This document shows positions 3,562 to 63,092 of a DNA stretch of 64,000 nt, in pieces. Position 1 is the stretch's first letter. Every line of letters starts with the position of its first letter. The position numbers and the translations under genes were made by a program. Origin of the DNA: Candidatus Woesearchaeota archaeon (GTDB lineage Archaea > Nanobdellota > Nanobdellia > Pacearchaeales > GW2011-AR1); the NCBI GenBank assembly GCA_964355135.1, contig CAYHCG010000008.1:423-64422 (forward strand), in the 5' to 3' direction. The notes beneath the pieces were generated by a model. That model had not been told where the DNA came from. It ran no database searches and saw nothing but the letters and a program-made list of their open reading frames with translations.

Positions 3562-3802
3562 AATGGAATACCAACCAAAACAAATTGCTGATATGATCCG
3601 AGCATACGAATCTCTTGCTGGTTCAGTTAAAGAACTTGTTTTTTACACAGAACGAGGCCCTATTAAAAAACATGAGTGGTCTGCTCGGATAAACAGTGCT
3701 TTAGATACTTATAAGGCCCAGGTTCCTCAAGAAGTACAAGAAGATCTGAAAGAAGAGTTTAAAGGACTTATGGCAAGGTTGCAAGAAGATTCTTTCGATT
3801 AA
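3542..3802 (+). CDS. hypothetical protein
   Basis: ORF. The likely start is MEYQPKQ at 3563. Confidence 0.3.
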   Translation: MKGGICKMEYQPKQIADMIRAYESLAGSVKELVFYTERGPIKKHEWSARINSALDTYKAQVPQEVQEDLKEEFKGLMARLQEDSFD

Positions 3803-3829: not shown

Positions 3830-4258
3830 TTAAGGCAAATTGAAAACTTTTCTAAATATTAAGCTACTGACGAAGGCAGAACCTATGTAATACCAGATCC
3901 ATTTTCCACCAATGGCTGTTTCAGCGTAAATTCCTTTAATGAATCCGATGAGAAGAATTATTGGAATGAATGTGATTATCATCGGTTTGAAAGAATGTTT
4001 CATCATTTCCATTGTGTGAGACATCATTTCTTTATTTAACTCCATCATCTTAGCATGATTTCCTGCCTTTTGATGTTCTTTTATTTGCAACTGCAGCGCT
4101 TTCTGCTTTGCTTTTATCCCTCTGACTTTTTCTTTGTCAATGATAAAATAGTTTATTAAACTGATAAGGAAAGAAACTACAAATCCGATTATGATTATAC
4201 TTATTATGGGATTTAGTTGTATAAGAGAAATTATATCTACCATTTTTATAGAAGACAA
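3830..4258 (-). CDS. DUF106 / EMC3-Oxa1-like archaeal membrane insertase homolog
   Basis: Three TM segments with a coiled-coil KQKALQLQIKEHQKAG segment. Lies directly next to secY, as in archaeal secY-adk-DUF106-cmk clusters. Confidence 0.5.
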   Translation of the reverse strand: MSSIKMVDIISLIQLNPIISIIIIGFVVSFLISLINYFIIDKEKVRGIKAKQKALQLQIKEHQKAGNHAKMMELNKEMMSHTMEMMKHSFKPMIITFIPIILLIGFIKGIYAETAIGGKWIWYYIGSAFVSSLIFRKVFNLP

Positions 4259-7621: not shown

Positions 7622-7760
7622 ATGAAAGAAAAATTTGTTAAGATAGTAAGAAAGAATGGAGATAGCCTCGCGATCAATATCCCGAAGGAAGTGATAGATA
7701 TAATGAAGATAACTGAAGGAGATATAATCAGAGTTGAAATCGAGAAGGTTAAAGGATAAT
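7622..7760 (+). CDS. AbrB/MazE/SpoVT-type swapped-hairpin DNA-binding protein (antitoxin-like), 45 aa
   Basis: Translates MKEKFVKIVRKNGDSLAINIPKEVIDIMKITEGDIIRVEIEKVKG. Not in the ORF track because it is under 60 aa. Its stop overlaps the next gene's ATG. Confidence 0.5.
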
Positions 7761-8556
7761 GAAAAATTATGAAATCTTAAATAAATCTGACAGAAAAAGA
7801 CGGATAAAAATCCCTGAGAGACATAGTGAGCTTGCAGAGCTCCTAGGCATTTTAACAGGAGATGGTTTTATGAATTACTATCCTAAGAGACAGGCATATA
7901 TTATTGGAATTGCCGGAAACAAATTGAAAGATTTAGAATATCTAGAAAACTTTACCAGCAAATTAATTAAAAATTTATTCAATTTAAGCCCCAGATTATA
8001 TTTACATAAAAGCCAAAATACTGCAAGTTTAGTCTTTCGTTCTAAGAGCATTTTTTATTTTCTTGAAGAATGTGGTTTTCCGACTGGAAGAAAGGGAGAA
8101 ATATCAATTCCAAAATGGATCTTAGAGAATCCTGATTTCTTTAAAAAATTCATTAGAGGCGTATTTGATACAGATGGACACTTATGTTTAAAGAATAAAG
8201 AGGGTAAAAAATATCCTGTTATTGGAATAACTTCAAAAAGTAAATCTTTATTGTTTCCGATAAAAGAATTTTTAAATTCATACGGGATAACTTCTTATCT
8301 GGGGAGCCATAGGGCGGACACAAGTAATAAGAAATTTATCGTTAATAGGGTTCAGATAAGTGGTCAGAAAAATATAGGATTGTTCTTTGATCAGGTTGGG
8401 TCAAATAACCCAAGAAATTTAATGAAGTATATGGAAATGGCCCCGGGGGGAATCGAACCCTCTTACAACGAGCTTCAGTCGTTTGCATTCCCATTATGCT
8501 ACAGGGCCTCCTTGTCCTTGAAATTGAGAGAAGAGAAGACTTTTAAATGTTTTTAA
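7759..8556 (+). CDS. LAGLIDADG-family homing endonuclease (double motif). The 3' end may be read-through.
   Basis: Two motifs, LLGILTGDGFM and FIRGVFDTDGHL, both keeping the acidic residues. The last ~40 codons are antisense to a tRNA-Phe. Confidence 0.7.
   Translation: MKNYEILNKSDRKRRIKIPERHSELAELLGILTGDGFMNYYPKRQAYIIGIAGNKLKDLEYLENFTSKLIKNLFNLSPRLYLHKSQNTASLVFRSKSIFYFLEECGFPTGRKGEISIPKWILENPDFFKKFIRGVFDTDGHLCLKNKEGKKYPVIGITSKSKSLLFPIKEFLNSYGITSYLGSHRADTSNKKFIVNRVQISGQKNIGLFFDQVGSNNPRNLMKYMEMAPGGIEPSYNELQSFAFPLCYRASLSLKLREEKTFKCF
8438..8508 (-). tRNA. tRNA-Phe (GAA), no encoded CCA
   Basis: Hand-folded cloverleaf. Acceptor GGCCCTG/CGGGGCC (one G-U pair), D-stem GCAT/ATGC, anticodon stem AACGA/TCGTT, loop CTGAAGC (anticodon GAA, G37), T-loop TTCGATT. 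There is one A-C mismatch in the T-stem. A TATA-like ATTTAAAAG lies about 30 nt upstream. Confidence 0.5.
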
Positions 8557-47928: not shown

Positions 47929-48025
47929 GACTTAATCAGTTGAGATCTACTAATAAATTTATCGTTATCGAAGATAAAACAGCTGTTTGGACAGGTGTTT
48001 GTGTTGTTTGAGATGTTTTAAACAA

Positions 48026-49218: not shown

Positions 49219-49547
49219 TTTATTATTTTTTAGCTGAAATTTTCTATTATGATAAGCAAACAGCTGTTTAAATACATTTTTGTTTAAAGAAAAAAGACTG
49301 TGAGAAAAAAGATTAAAGACCGATGTAAAAAATTCATTAATGGAGAGATTTATTGAGGATAATTGGGGCTGTTTAAGCTGTTTAAACAGGTGTTTGTTTT
49401 AACTCTTATGGTGTTTTCCAAGCACTCCAGGTGTTTAGAAGGGTGTTTGAGCTGTTTGTTTTATAGATTGAAGGGTGTTTTTTTACGAATGGTTAATAGA
49501 GGAGAGCTAACGTAATATTTAAATAGTCAAGCTGTTTAAACAGTTTT

Positions 49548-50180
49548 ATGTTTGGATGGTTTAAGAAAAAAGAGTTAAGGGATTTGGAGAAAAAAACTCA
49601 AGAAGGGTTTGGTTCTGTTAAAAGAGATATTGATGCGGTTGGAAAGTGGATCAAACACCTTGACAAGCAAGACAAACAGCTGTTTGATTTAATAAATTTG
49701 TTAAAAAGCGATTTGTCGTATATAAGAGATGAGCTAGATAGTTTGAGAGAAGGTGTTGAAGAGATCTCAGAAGAACGAAAAGGCAAACAGCTGTTTAAGA
49801 AATTACCTGTTTTAGGCAAACAGACAGCTGTTGAGGATGTTCAAGAAGCTGTTCAAACAGCTGTCCAAACAGGTAATTTTTATGATATTTTTAAAAGATT
49901 GTCTGCTAATGAGAGGGCGGTAATTATTACGTTGATGAATAGTGAAATGAAGTTGAGTTATGAGGATTTGGCACTATTACTTGGAAAAGAGAAGTCTACA
50001 GTAAGGGGTCAGATCAATTCCATAAAACAGAAAAGTGAAGGATTGATCCTGGAGATGATCGAGAAAAATGGCAAAAAAAGGGTCTATGTACCTGAAGAAA
50101 TTAAGGAAAAAATGCAAAAATACGCAAAAGTGAGGGTTGGAAAGGGTAAAAAGAACAAGAAAAAGGATGAAAATGAGTAA
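49548..50180 (+). CDS. coiled-coil + C-terminal winged-HTH DNA-binding protein carrying KQLF repeats
   Basis: C-terminal LSANERAVIITLMNSEMKLSYEDLALLLGKEKSTVRGQINSIKQKSEGLILEMIEKNGKKRVYV. Paralog of 50609..51403. Contains 4 AAACAGCTGTTT motifs in frame. Confidence 0.45.
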   Translation: MFGWFKKKELRDLEKKTQEGFGSVKRDIDAVGKWIKHLDKQDKQLFDLINLLKSDLSYIRDELDSLREGVEEISEERKGKQLFKKLPVLGKQTAVEDVQEAVQTAVQTGNFYDIFKRLSANERAVIITLMNSEMKLSYEDLALLLGKEKSTVRGQINSIKQKSEGLILEMIEKNGKKRVYVPEEIKEKMQKYAKVRVGKGKKNKKKDENE

Positions 50181-50224
50181 AAATAGGCTCCAAAACGTAA
50201 AAGTGAGAGTTAGGAAGTGAAAAA

Positions 50225-50458
50225 ATGGCAAAAAAAGATGAAAAAAACTGGTTGAAAGGGGTAAAAGACCTCAAAAATAGAAAAGTGAGAGTTGTGGAAA
50301 GAAAAAAATTTGATAGGTTTATGGAAAAATGTAAAAAAGAGAGTGTTTTGGACAATTTTTTGACTTTTGAGATTGGACATTACAAAAGTGAGAGAAACAT
50401 CTTCATGAGTGTATCTGAACAAAACATCAAAAAGGGGGGAGTTGAGGAGGATATGTGA
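50225..50458 (+). CDS. doubtful small ORF overlapping the direct-repeat array
   Basis: 77-aa Lys-rich ORF spanning the AAAAGTGAGAGTT repeats. May not be coding. Confidence 0.15.
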   Translation: MAKKDEKNWLKGVKDLKNRKVRVVERKKFDRFMEKCKKESVLDNFLTFEIGHYKSERNIFMSVSEQNIKKGGVEEDM

Positions 50459-50608
50459 AAATTTATGAAAATGGGGGAAAAAGGAGAGAGTTTTAAGCGA
50501 ACTTTAGCCGTAAAGAATTGATGAAAGGTTTAGGGAGAAGTTAGTGAAAGATACCCGTTTAAACGAATTACTCAAAGTTTAAGGGCATTTTGTGAGAGAT
50601 TTACGATT

Positions 50609-51403
<795 letters not shown>

Positions 51404-51445: not shown

Positions 51446-51718
51446 TTAAAGTTGCTTTTTGGAATAGATATTATAGACTTGTGAAGATAGACGCCATCTC
51501 TGCCTTCGCGTATATACTGTTCCCTGGGAATTCTTTTTGACTTCTACTACGAAGTTCTTTTTCTGTAAGTGGAGGAGAAGGCTTTTAGTAAATTCTTCGT
51601 CACGCGCAGTTTCCTCTGCTATTTTATTTGTAAAGGCTGCTTCAGGAGAGATCGAGAAAAGGTAATGTAAGATCTGCTCGGATATTTTGTCTTTTTTCTG
51701 TTGAGATATCTTTGGCAT
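51446..51718 (-). CDS. small hypothetical protein (possible winged-helix)
   Basis: ORF only. Confidence 0.25.
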   Translation of the reverse strand: MPKISQQKKDKISEQILHYLFSISPEAAFTNKIAEETARDEEFTKSLLLHLQKKNFVVEVKKNSQGTVYTRRQRWRLSSQVYNIYSKKQL

Positions 51719-56050: not shown

Positions 56051-56311
56051 TTACATTAAGTCTTCTTCAGAGACAACTACAAAATCGCCAATAGCTATTA
56101 TTGAATTGTAAGGAACTAGAGCTTCCCCTTTATTTGAGGATTCTAAGGAGAGGTTTTTTGTATATGGAGTTGAATCTTTAAGAACTAACTGGATTAATTC
56201 TCCTGTTCTTGTTTCAAAAGTAATGTCTTTGACGAAACCTAATCTCTTGCCTTCCTTGGTAACCACGAGCTTTCCCATGACATCTCTTAGAGGCTTTTTT
56301 TCTAGTACCAT
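56051..56311 (-). CDS. PRC-barrel domain protein
   Basis: RDVMGKLVVTKEGKRLGFVKDITFETRTGELIQLVL. Confidence 0.5.
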   Translation of the reverse strand: MVLEKKPLRDVMGKLVVTKEGKRLGFVKDITFETRTGELIQLVLKDSTPYTKNLSLESSNKGEALVPYNSIIAIGDFVVVSEEDLM

Positions 56312-56379: not shown

Positions 56380-56916
56380 CTTTAAATTGAAGAATTATTC
56401 AACTTTCTTCTTACCCCCGCCCCCCATGGTTTCGTGTGGAGATAGGATATTATTATAGTGAGACTGAGATATTTTTCTTCTTCTAATTTTCATTTATAAA
56501 TATTTATATTATATAATATAGATATAATAACTATTTTGTTGATATTGATAGATTAGTTCTTTTAATATGAGATATAGATAGTTGTAACGATATAATTGAT
56601 TGTTATGATTAATTCATATTAATAGACCATATTATTGATTAAGAGAAGTATTTTAACAGAGTAGTACGGTTAATTAAATTAAAGTGAATGATTTGATAGT
56701 TATACTTTCATATAATAGTTCTGTCTAATTATAATTTATTTTTATGTAGTAGATATCTATTTCTCCAGTGGAAATGCTGGTGTGGGTGCGTGATTTGATT
56801 TTTTCTTTTTATGATCATTTTTCGTCGATCTTTCCCCATTAACACAAGAAATAAGGGTTAAAGAATAGATAAGTTTAAATTGGAGGGATAGTAAATATAT
56901 TTGAGGTGAAAAAGAG
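56380..56916. promoter_or_regulatory. chromosomal replication origin (oriC): two inverted ORB elements flanking an AT-rich DNA-unwinding element
   Basis: ORB TCTCCAGTGGAAATGCTGGTGTGGGTG at 56762..56790. Inverted degenerate ORB ACCCCCGCCCCCCATGGTTTCGTGTGGAGA at 56413..56446. About 300 bp of more than 85% A+T between them. Directly upstream of orc1/cdc6-polD. Confidence 0.6.
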
Positions 56917-58128
56917 ATGGATAAACTTGATCAGATTTTCGATTCTTTTGCAGCAACCAGCTTATTCAAGAATAAAAGTGTGCTGCAGTCAAATTATGCC
57001 CCCGATAGTATTTTACACAGAACTGAACAAATAGAGTCAATCGCTTCTATTTTGGGTCCAACTCTGCGGGGAGACAAGGCCAGTAATCTATTTCTTTATG
57101 GGAAAACCGGCAGCGGCAAGACCTTAAGCATGCAACATGTAGGAAATAAATTAGAAAGCAGAACAAAAGAGCTCAATGGCAATAAAATCAAGTTTTTATA
57201 TATAAATTGTAAATTAAGGAAAGTTTCTGATACAGAATATAGAATCATCGCAGAATTAATAAAAGCCCTGGGGGAAAAAATACCTGCTACAGGACTTCCT
57301 ACCGATGCAGTTTATTCAAAATTTGTTGAAATTATAGATAATGAAAAACAAGTTGTTGTCCTAGTACTAGACGAAATAGATCAGGCCGTTAAGAAAATAT
57401 CTGATAATTTTATTTACACATTAACAAGGATGAATTCAGAACTAAAAAATGCTCAAATAAGTCTAGTTGGGATAAGTAATAGTTTGACATTCATGGATAA
57501 CTTGGATCCTCGAGTCAGAAGCTCTCTAGGAGAAGAGGAAATTGTTTTTCCACCTTATAATGCATTGCAATTAAGAGATATATTAAAGAAAAGGGCAGAA
57601 TCCGCATTCAATGAGGACTGTCTGGGAGAGGGAGTTATTGAAAAATGTGCGGCTTATGCTGCAAGAGAGCATGGGGATGCAAGAAGAGCTTTAGATTTAC
57701 TAAGGGTTGCGGGGGAGATAGCGGTTAGAGAAGGAAGCAAGAAAGTGTTACTTAAGCATATTGATGTTTCAAATGAGAAAATCGAAAGAGATAAAATGCT
57801 CGATGTTATTGAAAGCGAACCTGCACAGTTCCAACTTGTTTTATACGCAATAATGAATTTAAGTGATGAAGGCAAGGGCATTAAAAATATATTTACTGGA
57901 GATGTTTTCAATGTTTATCAGGAACTTTGCGAGAAAACCAAGAGCGAAGTTTTAACCCAGCGGAGAGTCTCGGATATTATCGCAGAGTTTGACATGTTAG
58001 GAATAATAAATGCAAGGGTGATAAGCAAGGGGAGACAGGGAAGGACCAGAGAAATAAAATTGATGCTATCTAAAAACATAAAAGAGAAAGCAAAAGAGAT
58101 CTTAGAGAAAGCTTTAGATATAAAATGA
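56917..58128 (+). CDS. orc1: Orc1/Cdc6 replication initiator
   Basis: Walker A LFLYGKTGSGKT, Walker B VLVLDEID, C-terminal winged helix. Confidence 0.9.
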   Translation: MDKLDQIFDSFAATSLFKNKSVLQSNYAPDSILHRTEQIESIASILGPTLRGDKASNLFLYGKTGSGKTLSMQHVGNKLESRTKELNGNKIKFLYINCKLRKVSDTEYRIIAELIKALGEKIPATGLPTDAVYSKFVEIIDNEKQVVVLVLDEIDQAVKKISDNFIYTLTRMNSELKNAQISLVGISNSLTFMDNLDPRVRSSLGEEEIVFPPYNALQLRDILKKRAESAFNEDCLGEGVIEKCAAYAAREHGDARRALDLLRVAGEIAVREGSKKVLLKHIDVSNEKIERDKMLDVIESEPAQFQLVLYAIMNLSDEGKGIKNIFTGDVFNVYQELCEKTKSEVLTQRRVSDIIAEFDMLGIINARVISKGRQGRTREIKLMLSKNIKEKAKEILEKALDIK

Positions 58129-58131
58129 AAA

Positions 58132-59676
58132 ATGGACAACGAAATTTTGAATCTGATAAGAGAAAGAGGATTATTACTAGAGAAGGAAATATTCGATTTA
58201 GTTAATCAGATTAAGGATGTAACTATCGCTAAGAACTTCTTAGAACAAATTGAGAGATTATCTGGAAAAAAACTCATAACTCGGAACGTTCTTGGAAGCA
58301 ACATGGAATATGTGAAAAGCTTTATGGGTACTTTAGGAGACAATAGCTATGTTGAGAGAGTTTTTGTGAATCTTGGTATAAGTCTTGAAGTAAGAAGAGA
58401 AGTACTCAAGGAAGAAAACAGAAAGCAGGAATATAAGATCCTGTATGCGAATACGACGGTTGACAAAAAGATTGAAGTAAAAGACTTTGTGGGTCATTTT
58501 AGGTCGCGCTTTGCGCAATTACAAAGAATTCTTATGTCACGGCCGGAACTTCAAAATAATTTGATTTCTATAAACAAAATACAATCCGAAAGAGCTAATT
58601 TAAGCATTATAGGAATTGTGAAAGAAAAAAGAATAACAAAAAATAAAAACATGATCTTGAGGCTTGAGGATTTAACTGGAGAGATAGGGGCCTTAGTTAA
58701 ATTTGATAGGGGAGAAGTATTTGAGAAAGCTGACGAATTATTATTAGACGATGTAATAGGGGTCAAGGCATCTGGAAATAAAGATCTCTTGTTTGTGCAG
58801 GATATATTTTATCCTGATTCAATGATATTTGAGAAAACTAGGTTTGAAAATGAAGATTGCATAGCCTTTCTTTCTGATTTACATTGTGGCAGCGATAGAC
58901 ACTTAAAAAAGAGCCTAGCGAGATTTTTGGAGTGGATTAATTCAGATGACGAAACTGCAAAGAAAATAAAATATATCTTTTTTGTAGGAGATAATGTAGA
59001 TGGGGTGGGAATTTTTCCAGGGCAGGAAGAAGTTTTAGAAATGAAAAGCATGAAACAACAGTATCAACTATTAAGCCATTATTTAAGACAAATTCCCAAG
59101 CATATTACCATGTTTATGTGTCCGGGACAGCACGATGCGGTAAGAGTTGCTGAACCTCAACCTGTTATAAGTAGAAGATATGCTCCTGAATTATACGAAA
59201 TTGAAAATTTAAATTTAGTGAGTAACCCTAGTCTTGTGAAGTTAATAGAAGGAGACAAAGAGTTTAAGGTACTAATGTATCATGGAGCAAGCATTCACAG
59301 TTTTATTAATGAAATTAAGACGTTAAGACTTATGAAAGCACACAGATGTCCTGCAAAAGCGGTTGAACAAATGCTCAAAAGAAGACATTTGGCTCCAACA
59401 CATAGCGAAGTGGTCTATATTCCAAATGCAGAGATCGATCCTTTAGTTATTAACGAAGTTCCAGATATTTTATGCACTGGTGAAGTTCACAGATTGGACA
59501 TTTCTACTTACAACGGCATCTTAATTATGACTGGCAGTTGCTGGCAGGCACAAACTCCTTTTGAAGAGAAGGTTGGGAATATTCCCGATCCTGCAAAAGT
59601 ACCTGTTTTTAATATGAAAACAAGGGAGCTAAAGATTTTTGATTTTAGCGCCACGGAGGAACTGAAAAAAAGATGA
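58132..59676 (+). CDS. DNA polymerase II (PolD) small subunit DP1
   Basis: Calcineurin-like phosphoesterase (Mre11-like) core with an OB domain. Gene order orc1-DP1-DP2 as in Pyrococcus. Confidence 0.85.
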   Translation: MDNEILNLIRERGLLLEKEIFDLVNQIKDVTIAKNFLEQIERLSGKKLITRNVLGSNMEYVKSFMGTLGDNSYVERVFVNLGISLEVRREVLKEENRKQEYKILYANTTVDKKIEVKDFVGHFRSRFAQLQRILMSRPELQNNLISINKIQSERANLSIIGIVKEKRITKNKNMILRLEDLTGEIGALVKFDRGEVFEKADELLLDDVIGVKASGNKDLLFVQDIFYPDSMIFEKTRFENEDCIAFLSDLHCGSDRHLKKSLARFLEWINSDDETAKKIKYIFFVGDNVDGVGIFPGQEEVLEMKSMKQQYQLLSHYLRQIPKHITMFMCPGQHDAVRVAEPQPVISRRYAPELYEIENLNLVSNPSLVKLIEGDKEFKVLMYHGASIHSFINEIKTLRLMKAHRCPAKAVEQMLKRRHLAPTHSEVVYIPNAEIDPLVINEVPDILCTGEVHRLDISTYNGILIMTGSCWQAQTPFEEKVGNIPDPAKVPVFNMKTRELKIFDFSATEELKKR

Positions 59677-62600
59677 ACATACAAGCTTATTTCAATGAAA
59701 TTGATGAAAAAGTAAAGCATGCTTACGCTATTGCAAATAAAGCGAGAGCTTTGGGACTCGATCCTGCAGATACCGTAGAAACCCCTATTGCAACAACCCT
59801 AGCTGAAAAGACTATAGGATTAATCTCTGTCGTTTATCCACAATTAAATAACAAAGAAGTTATAGAGAGAATTTTAGAGCTGGAAAAAGAATACGGACAA
59901 CTTGATACTACAGTTGCATTTAAGATTGCAGAGGAAGTCGCAAAAGAGAAATTCTGCAAATTTAAGGACTTAATGGAATCTATGGATGCGGGAATAAGGG
60001 TAGGTTTTGCCTATATTACTTTGGGTGTTGTTTCAAGTCCTATTGAAGGATTTACGGGACTTAGGGTGGGGAAGACTAGAGAAGGTAAAGATTACTTGAT
60101 GGCTTATTTTTCAGGCCCCATAAGAAGCGCTGGAACTACTGCTTCGTGTGTAGTGTTAATGCTGATTGATTATTTACGAGAGACTTTTGGATTTGCAAAA
60201 TTTGATCCAGACGAGAATGAAGTTAAAAGATATGTTACTGAAAATTATGATTATCATGAAAGAGTAAACAATTTGCAATATTTACCCACTGAAGAAGAAA
60301 TTGCATTCCTAGCAAAGAATTTGCCTATCCAGATTAATGGAGAGGCGAGTGAAGATCGAGAAGTTTCCAATTATAAAGATCTGGCAAGGGTAGAAACTAA
60401 TTTTATTCGCGGAGGGATGTGCCTTATTTTTTCAGAAGGATTAGCTCAAAAGGCGCAGAAAGGACTTAGACTTTTGAAGGGAGTAAAAGAGAAAGGATTA
60501 AAATCTAGCGGATGGGACTTTCTGGATGAGTATATTGTATTGCACAAGAAGAGAGAAAAAGGAAGCGCGGATACAAGTCCCACATACATAAAAGATATTG
60601 TTGCAGGCAGACCTGTTTTTGGACATCCTTCAAGATCGGGAGGATTCAGGTTTAGATATGGGAGAAGCAGAACGGGCGGATTTTCTGCAACTGCTATAAG
60701 CCCTTTAACTATGGGCATATCGAATCAATTCTTATCTTCTGGAAATCAATTAAAAATAGAAAAACCTACGAAGGGATGCGCAATAACAGTATGTGATTCT
60801 ATAGATGGCCCGGTTGTAAAACTAAAAGACGGAACGGTAAAGAGAATGAAAACTTTTGAAGAGACAAAAAAGCTTTACAAAGATGTTGAAGAGATTTTAT
60901 ATTTGGGAGACTTGCTGTTTTCATTAGACGATGTAATTAATAGGAATTATGAGTTACTAAAATCAGGATATGTTGAAGAGTGGTGGGACTTGGAATTAAA
61001 GAAAGCGGCAGGAGAAGATAATCCGGACACAAAACTAGATAGTTTTAATGTGGTTTTTGAAAAGGCAGTAGAACTTAGTGAAAAATATAAAATACCTCTG
61101 CATCCTTCTTTTATTTATTATTGGACGCAAATAGATTATGATGGATTTTTGGCATTAATTGATTGGACCGCACATGGAGATCTCAGAGAAGGCAAGCTTG
61201 TCCTGCCTTATACTAAAGTTGATAGAGAACGATTTGCGAAAGGCAAGAGGACTATGGAATTAATTGCATGTGAGCATTTAGTTGGGATAGAGAATGTCAT
61301 TTTAGAAGAAAAAGATACAAAACCTTTTTTACTTAATCTAGGATTTGATGTTGAAAATCTAACTATGGAGAGTTTTGAGGCAAAATTAGATGAGCTTTCT
61401 TTAGTAGTGAAGGAGAAAGGAAACGTATTAGAAATTATAAATAAACTTTCCAAGTATAAAATTAAAGATAAGGCAGGAACATTCATTGGAACGAGGATGG
61501 GTCGACCAGAAAAAGCGAAACTGAGGAAGCTTACTGGCAGTCCGCATGTTTTATTTCCTGTAGGAAATGAAGGAGGAAGATTAAGGAGTTTTCAGGCAGC
61601 CTGCGATATAGGAAATGTGACTAGCGAATTTGCTAATTACTATTGTAATACTTGCAAGGGCGATAAGATTTATAGAAAATGTGAAACTTGCAGAGCAGAT
61701 TGCGAACTCAAAGAAGAAGAGCAAGGGTTTGGCAAAAGAGGGAAAAGAATAGATATTAAAGAGTATTTTGAAAGCGCAAAAAAACTCTTGGGAGTGAGGG
61801 GAGAAGAACTGCCTGTTGTGAAGGGAGTTAGGGGAATGTCAAATAAAGATCACAGCATAGAGCCCTTGGCGAAAGGGATATTGCGGGCAAAGCATAACTT
61901 GAATGTAAACAAGGACGGGACTATCAGATACGATATGACTGAAATGGCTTTCACTCATTTTAAGCCTGGAGAAATTGGAACGAGCCCAGAGAAATTAAGG
62001 GGGCTTGGATACGAAAAAGATATTGAAGGAAATCTACTCGAGCGTGATGACCAAATCTTAGAATTATTACCTCATGATATTATCTTGCCGTCATGTCCTG
62101 AGACTCTAGATGAAAGAGCAGATGACGTTTTTTTAAGAATATGTAAATTTATTGATGACGAACTAGAGAAATTGTATAAATTAGATAAGTTTTACAATGC
62201 CAATACGAAAGAAGATATCATAGGCCACTATGTTGTTTGTATTGCACCTCATATTTGCACTGCAACTGTGGGGAGAATCATAGGGTTTTCAAAGATACAG
62301 GCTTTACTAGCAAGTCCGTTCATGCATGCAGCGATGAGAAGAGACTGTGATGGTGATGAAGCTGCAGTAATGTTGCTTATGGACTTACTGCTCAACTTCT
62401 CGAAGAAATTTTTGCCAGCTCATAGGGGGGGAACTCAAGATGCGCCTCTAGTATTGAATACACATATTAGCGCGGGAGAAGTTGATGACCAAATCCTTGA
62501 CTTTATCATGGGAGCATACCCTTTAGAACTTTATGAACTAGCAGAGCAAGGCAAACATTCTTCCGAATTAAAAGTAGACAACGTAAAAAAGAGGTTGAAA

Positions 62601-63092
62601 GATGGAAAGGACACATTTACCGGGATAAAATTTACTCACGGTTGCTCTGATTTCAATGCGGGAGTTGTGAATTCTTCCTATAAGCTTTTGCCTACAATGC
62701 ATGAAAAAGTAAGCGCGCAGATGGATTTATGTAAAAAAATACGGGCAGTGGATGTCGAAGATGTTGCTCGATTGATCATTGAGAGACACTTCATAAGAGA
62801 TACTAGGGGTAATTTGAGAAAGTTTTCAATGCAGGTTTTTAGATGTGTGGGCTGTAATGAGAAATATAGGAGGCCTCCTTTGATTGGCAAGTGCGGCAAG
62901 TGCGGAGGGAGATTGATATTTACGATTTCAGAAGGAAGTATTCTCAAATATATGCAGCCGGCACTAGATTTAGCGAGAACTTACAATTCTAGCCCATATC
63001 TATTGGAATCACTAGAACTTACTGAAATGTATATTCATAGTATATTTGGCAAAGAGAAAGAGAAACAAGAAGGACTTGGGAAGTGGTTTTAA
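59673..63092 (+). CDS. DNA polymerase II (PolD) large subunit DP2
   Basis: 1139 aa. C-terminal Zn-binding CVGCNEKYRRPPLIGKCGKCGG. No intein. Overlaps DP1 (ATGA). Confidence 0.9.
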   Translation: MNIQAYFNEIDEKVKHAYAIANKARALGLDPADTVETPIATTLAEKTIGLISVVYPQLNNKEVIERILELEKEYGQLDTTVAFKIAEEVAKEKFCKFKDLMESMDAGIRVGFAYITLGVVSSPIEGFTGLRVGKTREGKDYLMAYFSGPIRSAGTTASCVVLMLIDYLRETFGFAKFDPDENEVKRYVTENYDYHERVNNLQYLPTEEEIAFLAKNLPIQINGEASEDREVSNYKDLARVETNFIRGGMCLIFSEGLAQKAQKGLRLLKGVKEKGLKSSGWDFLDEYIVLHKKREKGSADTSPTYIKDIVAGRPVFGHPSRSGGFRFRYGRSRTGGFSATAISPLTMGISNQFLSSGNQLKIEKPTKGCAITVCDSIDGPVVKLKDGTVKRMKTFEETKKLYKDVEEILYLGDLLFSLDDVINRNYELLKSGYVEEWWDLELKKAAGEDNPDTKLDSFNVVFEKAVELSEKYKIPLHPSFIYYWTQIDYDGFLALIDWTAHGDLREGKLVLPYTKVDRERFAKGKRTMELIACEHLVGIENVILEEKDTKPFLLNLGFDVENLTMESFEAKLDELSLVVKEKGNVLEIINKLSKYKIKDKAGTFIGTRMGRPEKAKLRKLTGSPHVLFPVGNEGGRLRSFQAACDIGNVTSEFANYYCNTCKGDKIYRKCETCRADCELKEEEQGFGKRGKRIDIKEYFESAKKLLGVRGEELPVVKGVRGMSNKDHSIEPLAKGILRAKHNLNVNKDGTIRYDMTEMAFTHFKPGEIGTSPEKLRGLGYEKDIEGNLLERDDQILELLPHDIILPSCPETLDERADDVFLRICKFIDDELEKLYKLDKFYNANTKEDIIGHYVVCIAPHICTATVGRIIGFSKIQALLASPFMHAAMRRDCDGDEAAVMLLMDLLLNFSKKFLPAHRGGTQDAPLVLNTHISAGEVDDQILDFIMGAYPLELYELAEQGKHSSELKVDNVKKRLKDGKDTFTGIKFTHGCSDFNAGVVNSSYKLLPTMHEKVSAQMDLCKKIRAVDVEDVARLIIERHFIRDTRGNLRKFSMQVFRCVGCNEKYRRPPLIGKCGKCGGRLIFTISEGSILKYMQPALDLARTYNSSPYLLESLELTEMYIHSIFGKEKEKQEGLGKWF

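Follow-up and report, generated by a model that had tools for sequence, protein, structure and literature searches.

A conserved, helically phased array of direct repeats beside a pair of paralogous coiled-coil/winged-helix genes in the chromosome of a DPANN archaeon

A stretch of 64,000 nucleotides from a Candidatus Woesearchaeota archaeon (assembly GCA_964355135.1, contig CAYHCG010000008.1, positions 423 to 64,422 of the forward strand), in the following called the window, contains a group of direct repeats in the gap between two convergent genes for winged helix-turn-helix (wHTH) proteins, here named A210 and B264. An original prediction, made from the sequence alone, had described these repeats as iteron-like and had proposed a plasmid or viral origin, a partition site or a regulatory switch region. 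The analysis revealed that the repeats form a conserved, phased array of asymmetric boxes on curved DNA, which is present at one place in each stretch examined. The array is linked to the pair of paralogous coiled-coil/wHTH genes and is separate from the canonical replication origin. With moderate confidence, the comparison of sequences points to a protein-binding DNA array that is cognate to the adjacent wHTH pair. The iteron-like character of the direct repeats and their tie to the two paralogous wHTH genes were thus borne out, in the window as well as in related loci. The genes and elements of the locus are the following:

49548 to 50180, + strand: A210, encoding a coiled-coil/MarR-like wHTH protein of 210 aa
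50100 to 50608, + strand: the array zone as a whole, a purine-rich gap (68% A+G on the + strand) with phased A-tracts between the convergent genes
50126 to 50138, + strand: box 1, AAAAGTGAGGGTT, overlapping the 3' end of A210 and read as K-V-R-V, with A-tracts at about -10 and about -21
50199 to 50211, + strand: box 2, AAAAGTGAGAGTT, non-coding, 21 bp past the A210 stop codon
50281 to 50293, + strand: box 3, AAAAGTGAGAGTT, an exact copy, conserved in a comparison of four close relatives
50335 to 50347, + strand: degenerate box-like site AAAAGAGAGTGTT, with two mismatches, kept in the relative L086
50384 to 50396, + strand: box 4, AAAAGTGAGAGAA, core intact, 3' part degenerate
50480 to 50504, + strand: conserved composite block, box-like AAAGGAGAGAGTT (50480-50492) followed by a second motif, TTAAGCGAACTT (50493-50504)
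50556 to 50567, no strand assigned: near-palindrome CGTTTAAACGAA, 42-53 bp past the B264 stop codon
50609 to 51403, - strand: B264, encoding a protein of 264 aa, the convergent paralogue of A210
51446 to 51718, - strand: C90, encoding a small wHTH-like protein, syntenic only in the first of the three arrangements given below

The sequence AAAAGTGAGRGTT occurs in three exact copies in the window (50126-50138, 50199-50211 and 50281-50293), all of them on the + strand. The expected number was 0.01, and none of 100 dinucleotide-preserving shuffles of the window reached three copies. The start-to-start distances of the boxes are 73, 82 and 103 bp, so that the four sites 73-103 bp apart of the original prediction were recovered as three exact copies and one degenerate copy. 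The 8-mer AAAGTGAG is present seven times in the window, both strands counted, and four of the seven copies lie inside 266 bp. A position matrix yielded the extended box consensus aAAAAnnGnAAAAGTGAGRGTTA, with A-tracts at about -20, at about -9 and at the box itself. A segment of about 20 nt, GAAAAATGGCAAAAAAAG, is also duplicated. In four close relatives the core of box 2 is invariant and its flanks diverge, and about 30 nt of the composite block are nearly invariant. The near-palindrome downstream of B264 belongs to a family with the consensus TTCGGTTAAACGAA, which was found 8-58 bp after the stop codon of B264-type genes in 12 listed loci, the window included; the k-mers TTAAACGA and TCGGTTAA are enriched for this family.

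Two further kinds of element were observed in the gap. The motif TTAARCGAACTT (50493-50504 in the window) is present at many loci in either orientation, and sometimes an inverted pair of it brackets part of the array. In close relatives, perfect hairpins with 10-bp stems (GAGAAGTTTG-CAAAAAT-CAAACTTCTC and variants) are inserted between A210 and B264 (L081 at about 1790-1815 and about 1850-1870, L084 at about 3700-3725 and about 4045-4075); they are absent from the window and may be small mobile palindromic elements or terminators.

For the comparison with other genomes, 80 loci were collected via the neighbouring Lhr helicase gene, and 33 of them share the layout of the window. Counting the window, at least one AAGTGAG box is present at or after the 3' end of A210 in 34 of 34 loci, at least two boxes are present in 29 loci and at least three in 22. 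The number of boxes per locus ranges from one to about six or seven, and they are direct repeats. The 16 kb of A/B zones contain 97 copies of AAAGTGAG, all of them on the + strand, whereas only 49 copies, on both strands, are present elsewhere in 1.32 Mb, which corresponds to an approximately 300-fold enrichment. In a comparison of four relatives with 78-100% identical A210 proteins, the boxes are invariant islands, while the rest of the gap diverges and has acquired indels. Also among loci whose proteins are only 25-84% identical a core of 8-13 nt has been kept, and the flanks diverge. No boxes were found elsewhere in the window or in the flanks of the 80 loci, and therefore the box is not a regulon motif.

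A second set of loci was retrieved from metagenomes with a DNA pattern of two boxes. An A210 homologue lies immediately upstream in 79 of these 120 arrays. About 12 of the remaining 41 arrays are unrelated repeats of higher GC content, and searches with hidden Markov models (HMMs) revealed that divergent A-type or B-type genes adjoin 17 of the 41, in two further layouts. The three arrangements are:

Arrangement 1: A210 rightward, a gap of 114-882 bp, B264 and C90 leftward, Lhr rightward
Arrangement 2: B' and A' leftward, lineage-specific repeats, boxes rightward (L095, L100, L170, L143, L162, L208)
Arrangement 3: A' leftward, boxes rightward, B leftward (L094, L104, L205, L106)

The boxes of arrangement 2 are found directly before an RsmE-like or METTL5-like gene and in its 5' half. 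The repeated sites adjoin the gene pair in all three arrangements, which suggests that they are bound by the products of their neighbours. The boxes may stand 3' of genes, 5' of genes, antisense to genes or inside genes, yet they stay beside the gene pair, and thus a role at the level of a messenger RNA is unlikely. As far as the sequences go, a cognate relation of site and protein would be the simplest account of this linkage. The three-part module of wHTH gene, repeats and wHTH gene, for which a search in related genomes had been suggested, is therefore widespread, and absence of the repeats from homologous loci, which would have spoken against a function, was not observed at any of the 34 syntenic loci.

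The spacing of the boxes is strictly organized. Distances from one box to another in the 34 genome loci form narrow clusters of 33-35, 41-45, 53-55, 63-65, 72-74, 81-85, 92-95 and 103-106 bp, and distances of 66-71, 75-80, 86-91 and 96-102 bp do not occur. With a period of 10.5 bp, the spacings have a mean phase of zero. The same was found in an independent set of 108 distinct metagenome arrays, which had been retrieved by the DNA pattern alone and in which the spacings peak at 73-74, 84 and 95 bp with troughs in between. Taken together, several direct repeats per locus are quantised to about 10.5 bp over more than 140 loci in total, as is typical of iterons. Phased A-tracts are a classical source of intrinsic DNA curvature. 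In the array zone the autocorrelation of A-tracts peaks at lags of 10, 20, 31 and 42 bp, also after the boxes have been masked, and the A-tracts recur about every 10.4 bp; the coding DNA of A210, used for comparison, gave only a weak periodicity signal. In an illustrative wedge model, the mean ratio of end-to-end to contour length was 0.909 for the array versus 0.976 +/- 0.005, and it was well below the values of the flanking genes, of oriC and of 100 shuffles. The spacing clusters and the phased A-tracts show that the boxes all face the same side of a bent duplex. Their spacing has evolved only by whole helical turns.

Several lines of evidence characterize the boxes as elements of the DNA and not of a protein or an RNA. 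Box 1 is in frame within the last 18 codons of A210 (49548-50180) and is read K-V-R-V. The distances of 73, 82 and 103 bp all leave a remainder of one when divided by three, so each later box is shifted by +1 frame, which confirmed the earlier statement that the copies sit in different reading frames and are a DNA-level feature. Over the genome loci the spacings are distributed 21, 21 and 28 over the three residues modulo 3, without triplet bias. An in-frame ATG is available for 19 of 71 downstream boxes, and the resulting open frames are barely longer than random controls. The 77-aa open reading frame (ORF) at 50225-50458, which had already been called doubtful, has no tblastn match in the 80 loci, and the small ORFs called in close relatives have nothing in common except the box itself. 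The A210 tail over the box usually reads KVRV, some tails carry two KVRV motifs, and in L059 the same box is translated in another frame as KSES. In L043, L047 and L053 the A210 tail lacks KVRV, and boxes are still present downstream. The first Val of the coding box is GTG in 24 of 24 listed box-type KVR sites, compared with 13.5% of the Val codons genome-wide, which reveals a synonymous-site constraint where the box overlaps coding sequence. In L143 (1786-2190) and L208 (3900-4225; both in array orientation, the reverse complement of the stored loci) the boxes lie inside a METTL5-like methyltransferase gene, in its 5' half, where they occupy two reading frames (KVRV, GKVSV, ESEY) with spacings of 64, 95, 84, 63 and 73 bp. 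A coding explanation was rejected because of the frame analysis, the unconserved ORFs and the codon evidence. The + strand RNA of the array has no significant fold (z = -0.73), and an Rfam scan of the window yielded three tRNAs and nothing else, hence also a structured or known RNA at the array was dismissed.

Both genes encode proteins with a predicted coiled coil and a wHTH domain. For A210 a long N-terminal helix was predicted at residues 4-75, followed by a disordered, Q/T-rich linker (77-108), a MarR/Lrs14-like wHTH domain (111-193) and a disordered basic tail. The family comprises 2210 homologues, and the best matches are typically 63-84% identical. The N-terminus M-F-x-W..KK is conserved (49548-49571, residues 1-8; M-F-x-W-(F/L)-x-K-K), and an aromatic-basic N-terminus is common to the A-type proteins of all arrangements (MFGWFKKK, MFWSSKKR, MVFWLFKRK and MSFWFFKRK; including L094, L100, L104, L143 and L205). 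It is a possible membrane- or partner-binding motif. B264, with 2401 homologues, has an N-terminal helix (4-47), a disordered linker of about 100 residues with the conserved motif STGNEGVPTDRQTDRQTD and a complete MarR-like wHTH module (152-263); sub-threshold matches to DnaD_N, HTH_36 and HTH_11 were found in members of its family. The wHTH domains of the two families are homologous (hhalign probability 96.7%, E 4e-10), in agreement with the prediction that the convergent flanking genes are paralogues. In Foldseek searches both proteins matched MarR, MepR, MexR and AbfR2 with E values of 1.6e-4 to 5e-4, and thus have a MarR-like winged-helix fold; the matches of A210 were MepR, MexR, AbfR2 (Lrs14-like), SmtB and ST1889. 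The underlying structure models are of medium confidence (mean pLDDT 68 and 73, with 80-96 in the wHTH region). Sequence searches of the PDB with profiles of both proteins gave chance-level matches only. Within B264 a (CTGT)n tract, (ACAG)n on the gene strand, and two tandem 25-nt repeats were observed (51125-51160 and 51224-51273). They encode TDRQ repeats of the disordered linker. Of 34 homologous genes, 22 have tracts of 12-36 nt. A tetranucleotide tract of this kind could be slippage-prone.

In addition to the boxes, a second class of repeats is present near the A210 promoter:

49532 to 49543, no strand assigned: palindrome CTGTTTAAACAG, between a TATA-like box (49514-49525) and the A210 ATG

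This palindrome probably represents an operator of the A210 promoter. At 49258, 49674 and 49785 there are related AAACAGCTGTTT sites, and altogether the window contains six AAACAG/CTGTTT palindromes of the types AAACAGCTGTTT and CTGTTTAAACAG (49258-49269, 49384-49395, 49532-49543, 49674-49685, 49785-49796 and 47977-47988), where 0.37 were expected. One of them lies about 290 bp 5' of the A210 start, and the positions at about -15 and about -150 are conserved in relatives. The palindromes within the A210 coding region encode KQLF and KQTAV via the rare codons CAG and CTG. Probably, one of the wHTH proteins uses these palindromes as its operator. The promoter-proximal repeats of A-type genes differ between lineages. 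They are AAACAG/CTGTTT in the window, TGGGAAT in L100 (1380-1650), L143 (1300-1480) and L208 (3500-3690), where TGGGAAT/TGGGACT is present in about 15-20 copies, six tandem CTGTGACTAGT units in L104 (2985-3050) and many GGTTCGA/TTCGAAC in L094 (1800-1900; all positions in array orientation). The recognition helix of the A-type proteins differs between the arrangements in parallel with these repeats. Protein and site seem to co-vary in a natural series, and this suggests that A is the reader of the promoter repeats. The B-type wHTH domain is better conserved than that of A, yet not invariant. Together with the invariant box this favours B264-type proteins as the more likely readers of the boxes; as a means to name the reader the conservation of the recognition helix leans to B264, and the result is not clean.

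The array could be clearly separated from the replication origin of the chromosome, which lies further to the right in the window and comprises origin recognition boxes (ORBs) and a DNA-unwinding element (DUE):

56413 to 56789, no strand assigned: oriC with the layout ORB-DUE-ORB, directly upstream of orc1/cdc6 and separate from the array
56413 to 56441, - strand: ORB, CTCCACACGAAACCATGGGGGGCGGGGG ending at 56441, listed also as CTCCACACGAAA...
56763 to 56789, + strand: ORB, CTCCAGTGGAAATGCTGGTGTGGGTGC
56917 to 58128, 58132 to 59676 and 59673 to 63092: orc1/cdc6 and the PolD subunits DP1 and DP2, forming an orc1/cdc6-polD operon
56051 to 56311, - strand: PRC-barrel ORF near oriC

The inverted ORBs flank an AT-rich DUE of about 300 bp with a GC content of 16-29%, which is lowest (16-22%) at 56500-56699. 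In related loci the ORB core is enriched 5' of orc1 (13 per 23 kb versus 44 per 1.4 Mb). Judged from these features, 56413-56789 has the textbook layout of an archaeal oriC. The array is located 6.0-6.7 kb to its left. The zone 50100-50600 contains no AT-rich unwinding element, its GC content of 27-38% being at the level of the genome, and no ORB-like sequence was seen at the array when it was compared by eye with the local ORB. A GC-skew anomaly, which had been named as a check, was not found, as the skew does not switch at the array. A replication origin at the array was therefore rejected, and the proposed iteron-based origin did not hold. In arrangement 1 every genome locus that is long enough has orc1-DP1 downstream. 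In the metagenome loci the orc1 start is 2.3-3.9 kb away from the A210 stop codon when the Lhr-phosphoesterase insertion is missing (n=13), and 5.6-9.9 kb away in loci with Lhr (n=4). Thus, the main Pacearchaeota lineage, which has arrangement 1, consistently has the module next to the origin, at a distance of 2-10 kb.

The proposal of a plasmid or viral replicon had to be abandoned. The window is part of the chromosome of a DPANN archaeon of the Pacearchaeota/Woesearchaeota type with a GC content of about 35%, and it encodes proteasome alpha, SecY, a type IV pilus ATPase, CCA-adding enzyme, FttA, Rad50/Mre11, ArgRS, Lhr, Orc1/Cdc6 and both PolD subunits. The closest loci are all from metagenome-assembled genomes of Pacearchaeota, Woesearchaeota or Nanoarchaeota. 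No homologue of A210 was found in IMG/VR, in the plasmid collection PLSDB or in the phage collection INPHARED, and together with the housekeeping neighbours this excluded a plasmid or virus context. Three IMG/VR matches to the two-box pattern were unrelated; two were inspected, one of them GC-rich and both long tandem repeats with a chance 12-mer. Elsewhere in the window, an ORF for a LAGLIDADG homing endonuclease (7759-8556, + strand) overlaps the tRNA-Phe gene on the opposite strand (8438-8508, - strand).

What the array does can be stated with less certainty than what it is. It is tentatively proposed that it organises or anchors the origin-proximal part of the chromosome as an architectural, centromere-like handle, a reading that is possible but is put forward with caution. 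It is favoured over autoregulation because the array is situated at the 3' ends of both genes in the dominant arrangement, because it is far more elaborate than an operator, because boxes are confined to the array in the window and the flanks, and because the proteins have features of the scaffolding type. Coiled-coil dimers or A/B heterodimers would carry two flexibly tethered wHTH heads, which could dock on neighbouring boxes. The long linkers would tolerate spacings of about 43-105 bp provided that the boxes share a helix face, and together with the two heads they would explain why the spacing varies in whole turns only. The outcome would be a single large nucleoprotein complex, confined to one locus of the chromosome. 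B most likely would bind the boxes with A as its partner, and A would read the lineage-specific repeats at its own promoter. It is tempting to go one step further and to envisage a motor-less centromere or chromosome anchor of DPANN archaea or Nanobdellota, unrelated to ParABS and SegAB, that tethers the newly replicated origin region beside oriC. The N-terminus of the A-type protein (M-F-x-W-x-x-K-K, then the coiled coil) would then bind the membrane or a partner, and the A-type protein and its B-type paralogue would clamp the phased boxes on bent DNA. In this specific form the proposal is doubtful.

Several observations weigh against the preferred interpretation, both in its core and in the architectural role. 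Arrangements 2 and 3 have no orc1 gene inside the 6-12 kb sampled, and the neighbours are genes for ribosomal proteins, ArgRS and Lon. Proximity to the origin is therefore specific for one lineage, which weakens an origin-related role. No partition NTPase of the ParA or SegA type was found in Pfam scans, which covered almost every ORF of 100 aa or more in the window, nor in the neighbour lists of L092 and L093, and a search for a ParA or SMC-type partner in the window yielded none beyond Rad50/Mre11. The boxes of arrangement 2 extend over a promoter and a 5' coding region, where plain gene regulation would fit as well. The B-type recognition helix varies (LSESSIRDYI, LSEHCIRSHI, ISESLIAQYV, LPNYLVNEYL) despite the invariant core of the box, so that an unlinked factor could be the reader. 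MarR-like dimers usually read palindromes, whereas the box is asymmetric. Furthermore, the spacing statistics are inflated by the shared ancestry of the loci, and the wedge model is illustrative.

The most serious competitor is local gene regulation, in which the boxes would be mere operators for the wHTH pair at its own locus and have no architectural role. They could act as a roadblock, in termination, by making the convergent transcripts of A210 and B264 interfere with each other, or, in arrangement 2, by control of the downstream gene. The MarR-like folds of both proteins are typical of repressors, the A210 promoter carries a palindromic putative operator of its own, and in arrangement 2 the boxes are located upstream of or within the 5' half of the RsmE-like or METTL5-like gene. 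In addition, the A-tracts of the + strand are T-tracts on the B264 strand, and oligo-T is a termination signal in archaea. Nevertheless, regulation alone is judged rather unlikely. The dominant arrangement places the array where both genes end and where no promoter is available for control. As many as six or seven phased boxes, 43-105 bp apart on bent DNA, go far beyond an ordinary operator. Simple repressors do not typically have coiled coils and long linkers with conserved motifs, and a near-universal core module would have no output if it regulated only itself. An element acting in RNA, for example sites for an RNA-binding protein in the A210 3' untranslated region, in RNA from antisense transcription or read-through, or in a non-coding RNA that is not annotated, would agree with the strict strand specificity of the boxes, which in arrangement 1 follow the A210 sense strand from its 3' end; the first T-run on the + strand past the A210 stop codon is at 50358, so boxes 2 and 3 may be transcribed. 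Such an element is very improbable, as phasing at 10.5 bp is meaningless for single-stranded RNA, in arrangements 2 and 3 the A-type gene has the boxes on its 5' side or in antisense orientation, the missing fold and the missing Rfam match argue against a structured RNA, and a purine content of 68% does not permit extensive helices.

A second, Orc1-independent or captured plasmid origin of the iteron type, fired by a Rep-like wHTH initiator, was considered as well. The helically phased direct repeats on bent DNA next to a winged-helix gene with an inverted-repeat operator recall pPS10, F and R6K, and the DnaD_N and HTH_36 matches in the B264 family, weak as they are, would point in the same direction. 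This origin is highly improbable in view of the complete canonical origin 6 kb away and of a GC content of 27-38% without AT-rich DUE, compared with 16-22% at the true DUE. Helicase loader, helicase and Rep domains are all absent, homologues in plasmids and viruses are missing, the GC skew is unchanged, and in some lineages the boxes are inside coding sequence. Genome sizes are about 0.74 Mb (preprint 10.64898/2026.05.13.725050), which makes a second origin 6 kb from the first implausible. Finally, the boxes could be functionless, decaying tandem duplications of the KVRV tail of A210 or of small KVRV peptides. KVRV is encoded by box 1 and is a possible reading of boxes 2 and 3 in short ORFs, the segment of about 20 nt mentioned above is duplicated too, and tails with two KVRV motifs exist. 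This is barely credible, because the core is conserved while the flanks diverge at protein identities of 25-84%, the boxes persist at the three loci without a KVRV tail, neither triplet periodicity nor ORFs longer than controls were found, and the coding box is under synonymous-site constraint.

To our knowledge, nothing is known about how the ultra-small DPANN archaea organise or segregate their chromosomes or time their replication, and we know of no segregation or organisation system in the phylum. The region studied here contains no recognisable SegAB or ParABS cassette. No description of a repeat, centromere or iteron of the DPANN origin region or of the A210 and B264 families was found in the literature. 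A 2026 preprint reports a wHTH regulator among universal markers specific for Nanobdellota (10.64898/2026.05.13.725050), which would agree with a core role if it belongs to the A210 or the B264 family. The locus offers a testable handle, namely a conserved cis-element of defined geometry at one place and two abundant, conserved and unannotated protein families, each of which has more than 2,000 members. Binding of the array by these proteins, if it occurs, would define a new family of protein/site pairs, and the array would be a landmark for the annotation of Nanobdellota origin regions. Even as an autoregulatory switch, it would be a case in which an array overlapping coding sequence constrains synonymous codons, spacings evolve in whole turns, and the recognition helix of one paralogue apparently co-varies with lineage-specific promoter repeats.

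Among known systems, plasmid iterons (pPS10 RepA, F RepE, R6K pi) resemble the array in their phased, asymmetric direct repeats, the A-tract bend, the winged-helix gene and the inverted-repeat promoter operator. In contrast to them, the array is chromosomal and part of a core gene set, its boxes are 43-105 bp apart instead of abutting units of 19-22 bp, it has no adjacent DUE, DnaA boxes or ORBs and lies 6 kb from the canonical origin, and A210 and B264 combine a coiled coil with a MarR-like domain instead of the Rep fold with two winged helices. The archaeal ORB/Orc1-Cdc6 system shares with it repeated boxes in the neighbourhood of an origin. However, the boxes at 50.1-50.4 kb have no similarity to the ORB (CTCCAsWsGAAA plus G-string), their flank contains no DUE, and the features of an oriC are united only at 56413-56789. 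Regulators of the MarR/Lrs14 type have the same fold (Foldseek matches MepR, MexR, AbfR2, MarR and ST1889), and the AAACAG palindrome at the A210 promoter resembles a classical operator. They lack the extra N-terminal coiled coil, the linker of 30-100 residues with conserved motifs and a long phased array outside promoters, and the AAAAGTGAGRGTT boxes, asymmetric and at the 3' ends of genes, do not have the palindromic form of a MarR operator.

SegB is an archaeal, chromosomal DNA-binding protein, whose sites are clustered around its own locus, many of them in coding sequence, and which forms a chromatin-like higher-order complex (PMC8682754, PMC12284271). It is a ribbon-helix-helix protein that binds the 13-bp palindrome TCTAGA-S-TCTAGA at about 40-50 genome sites and has the ParA-type partner SegA (PMC8682754, PMC12284271). 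The locus described here differs from SegAB in its asymmetric direct repeats at one locus, in wHTH instead of ribbon-helix-helix proteins and in the absence of SegA, and it therefore does not belong to that system. Partition centromeres such as F sopC/SopB, R1 parC/ParR and pNOB8 AspA also consist of a repeat array beside the gene of the binding protein, here downstream of the presumed binder gene. Further likenesses are the single locus per replicon, the expected higher-order complex and, in the main lineage, a position near the origin as for bacterial parS. Unlike them, the cassette and the window have no gene for ParA, ParM or TubZ, and the proteins combine a MarR-like wHTH domain and a coiled coil instead of a ribbon-helix-helix or ParB-type HTH domain. 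RacA of Bacillus subtilis has an N-terminal MerR-like HTH domain and a C-terminal coiled coil, binds GC-rich inverted-repeat ram sites distributed over about 600 kb and is specific for sporulation. It tethers the region near the origin, and the combination of an HTH domain with a long coiled coil and a cluster of short sites close to the origin is common to both systems, whereas RacA is bacterial and has no sequence relation to A210 or B264. Judged by these analogies, the array would appear to work most like iterons and direct-repeat centromeres of the type of sopC/SopB, parC/ParR and AspA, and like an origin-proximal anchor of the type of RacA-ram.

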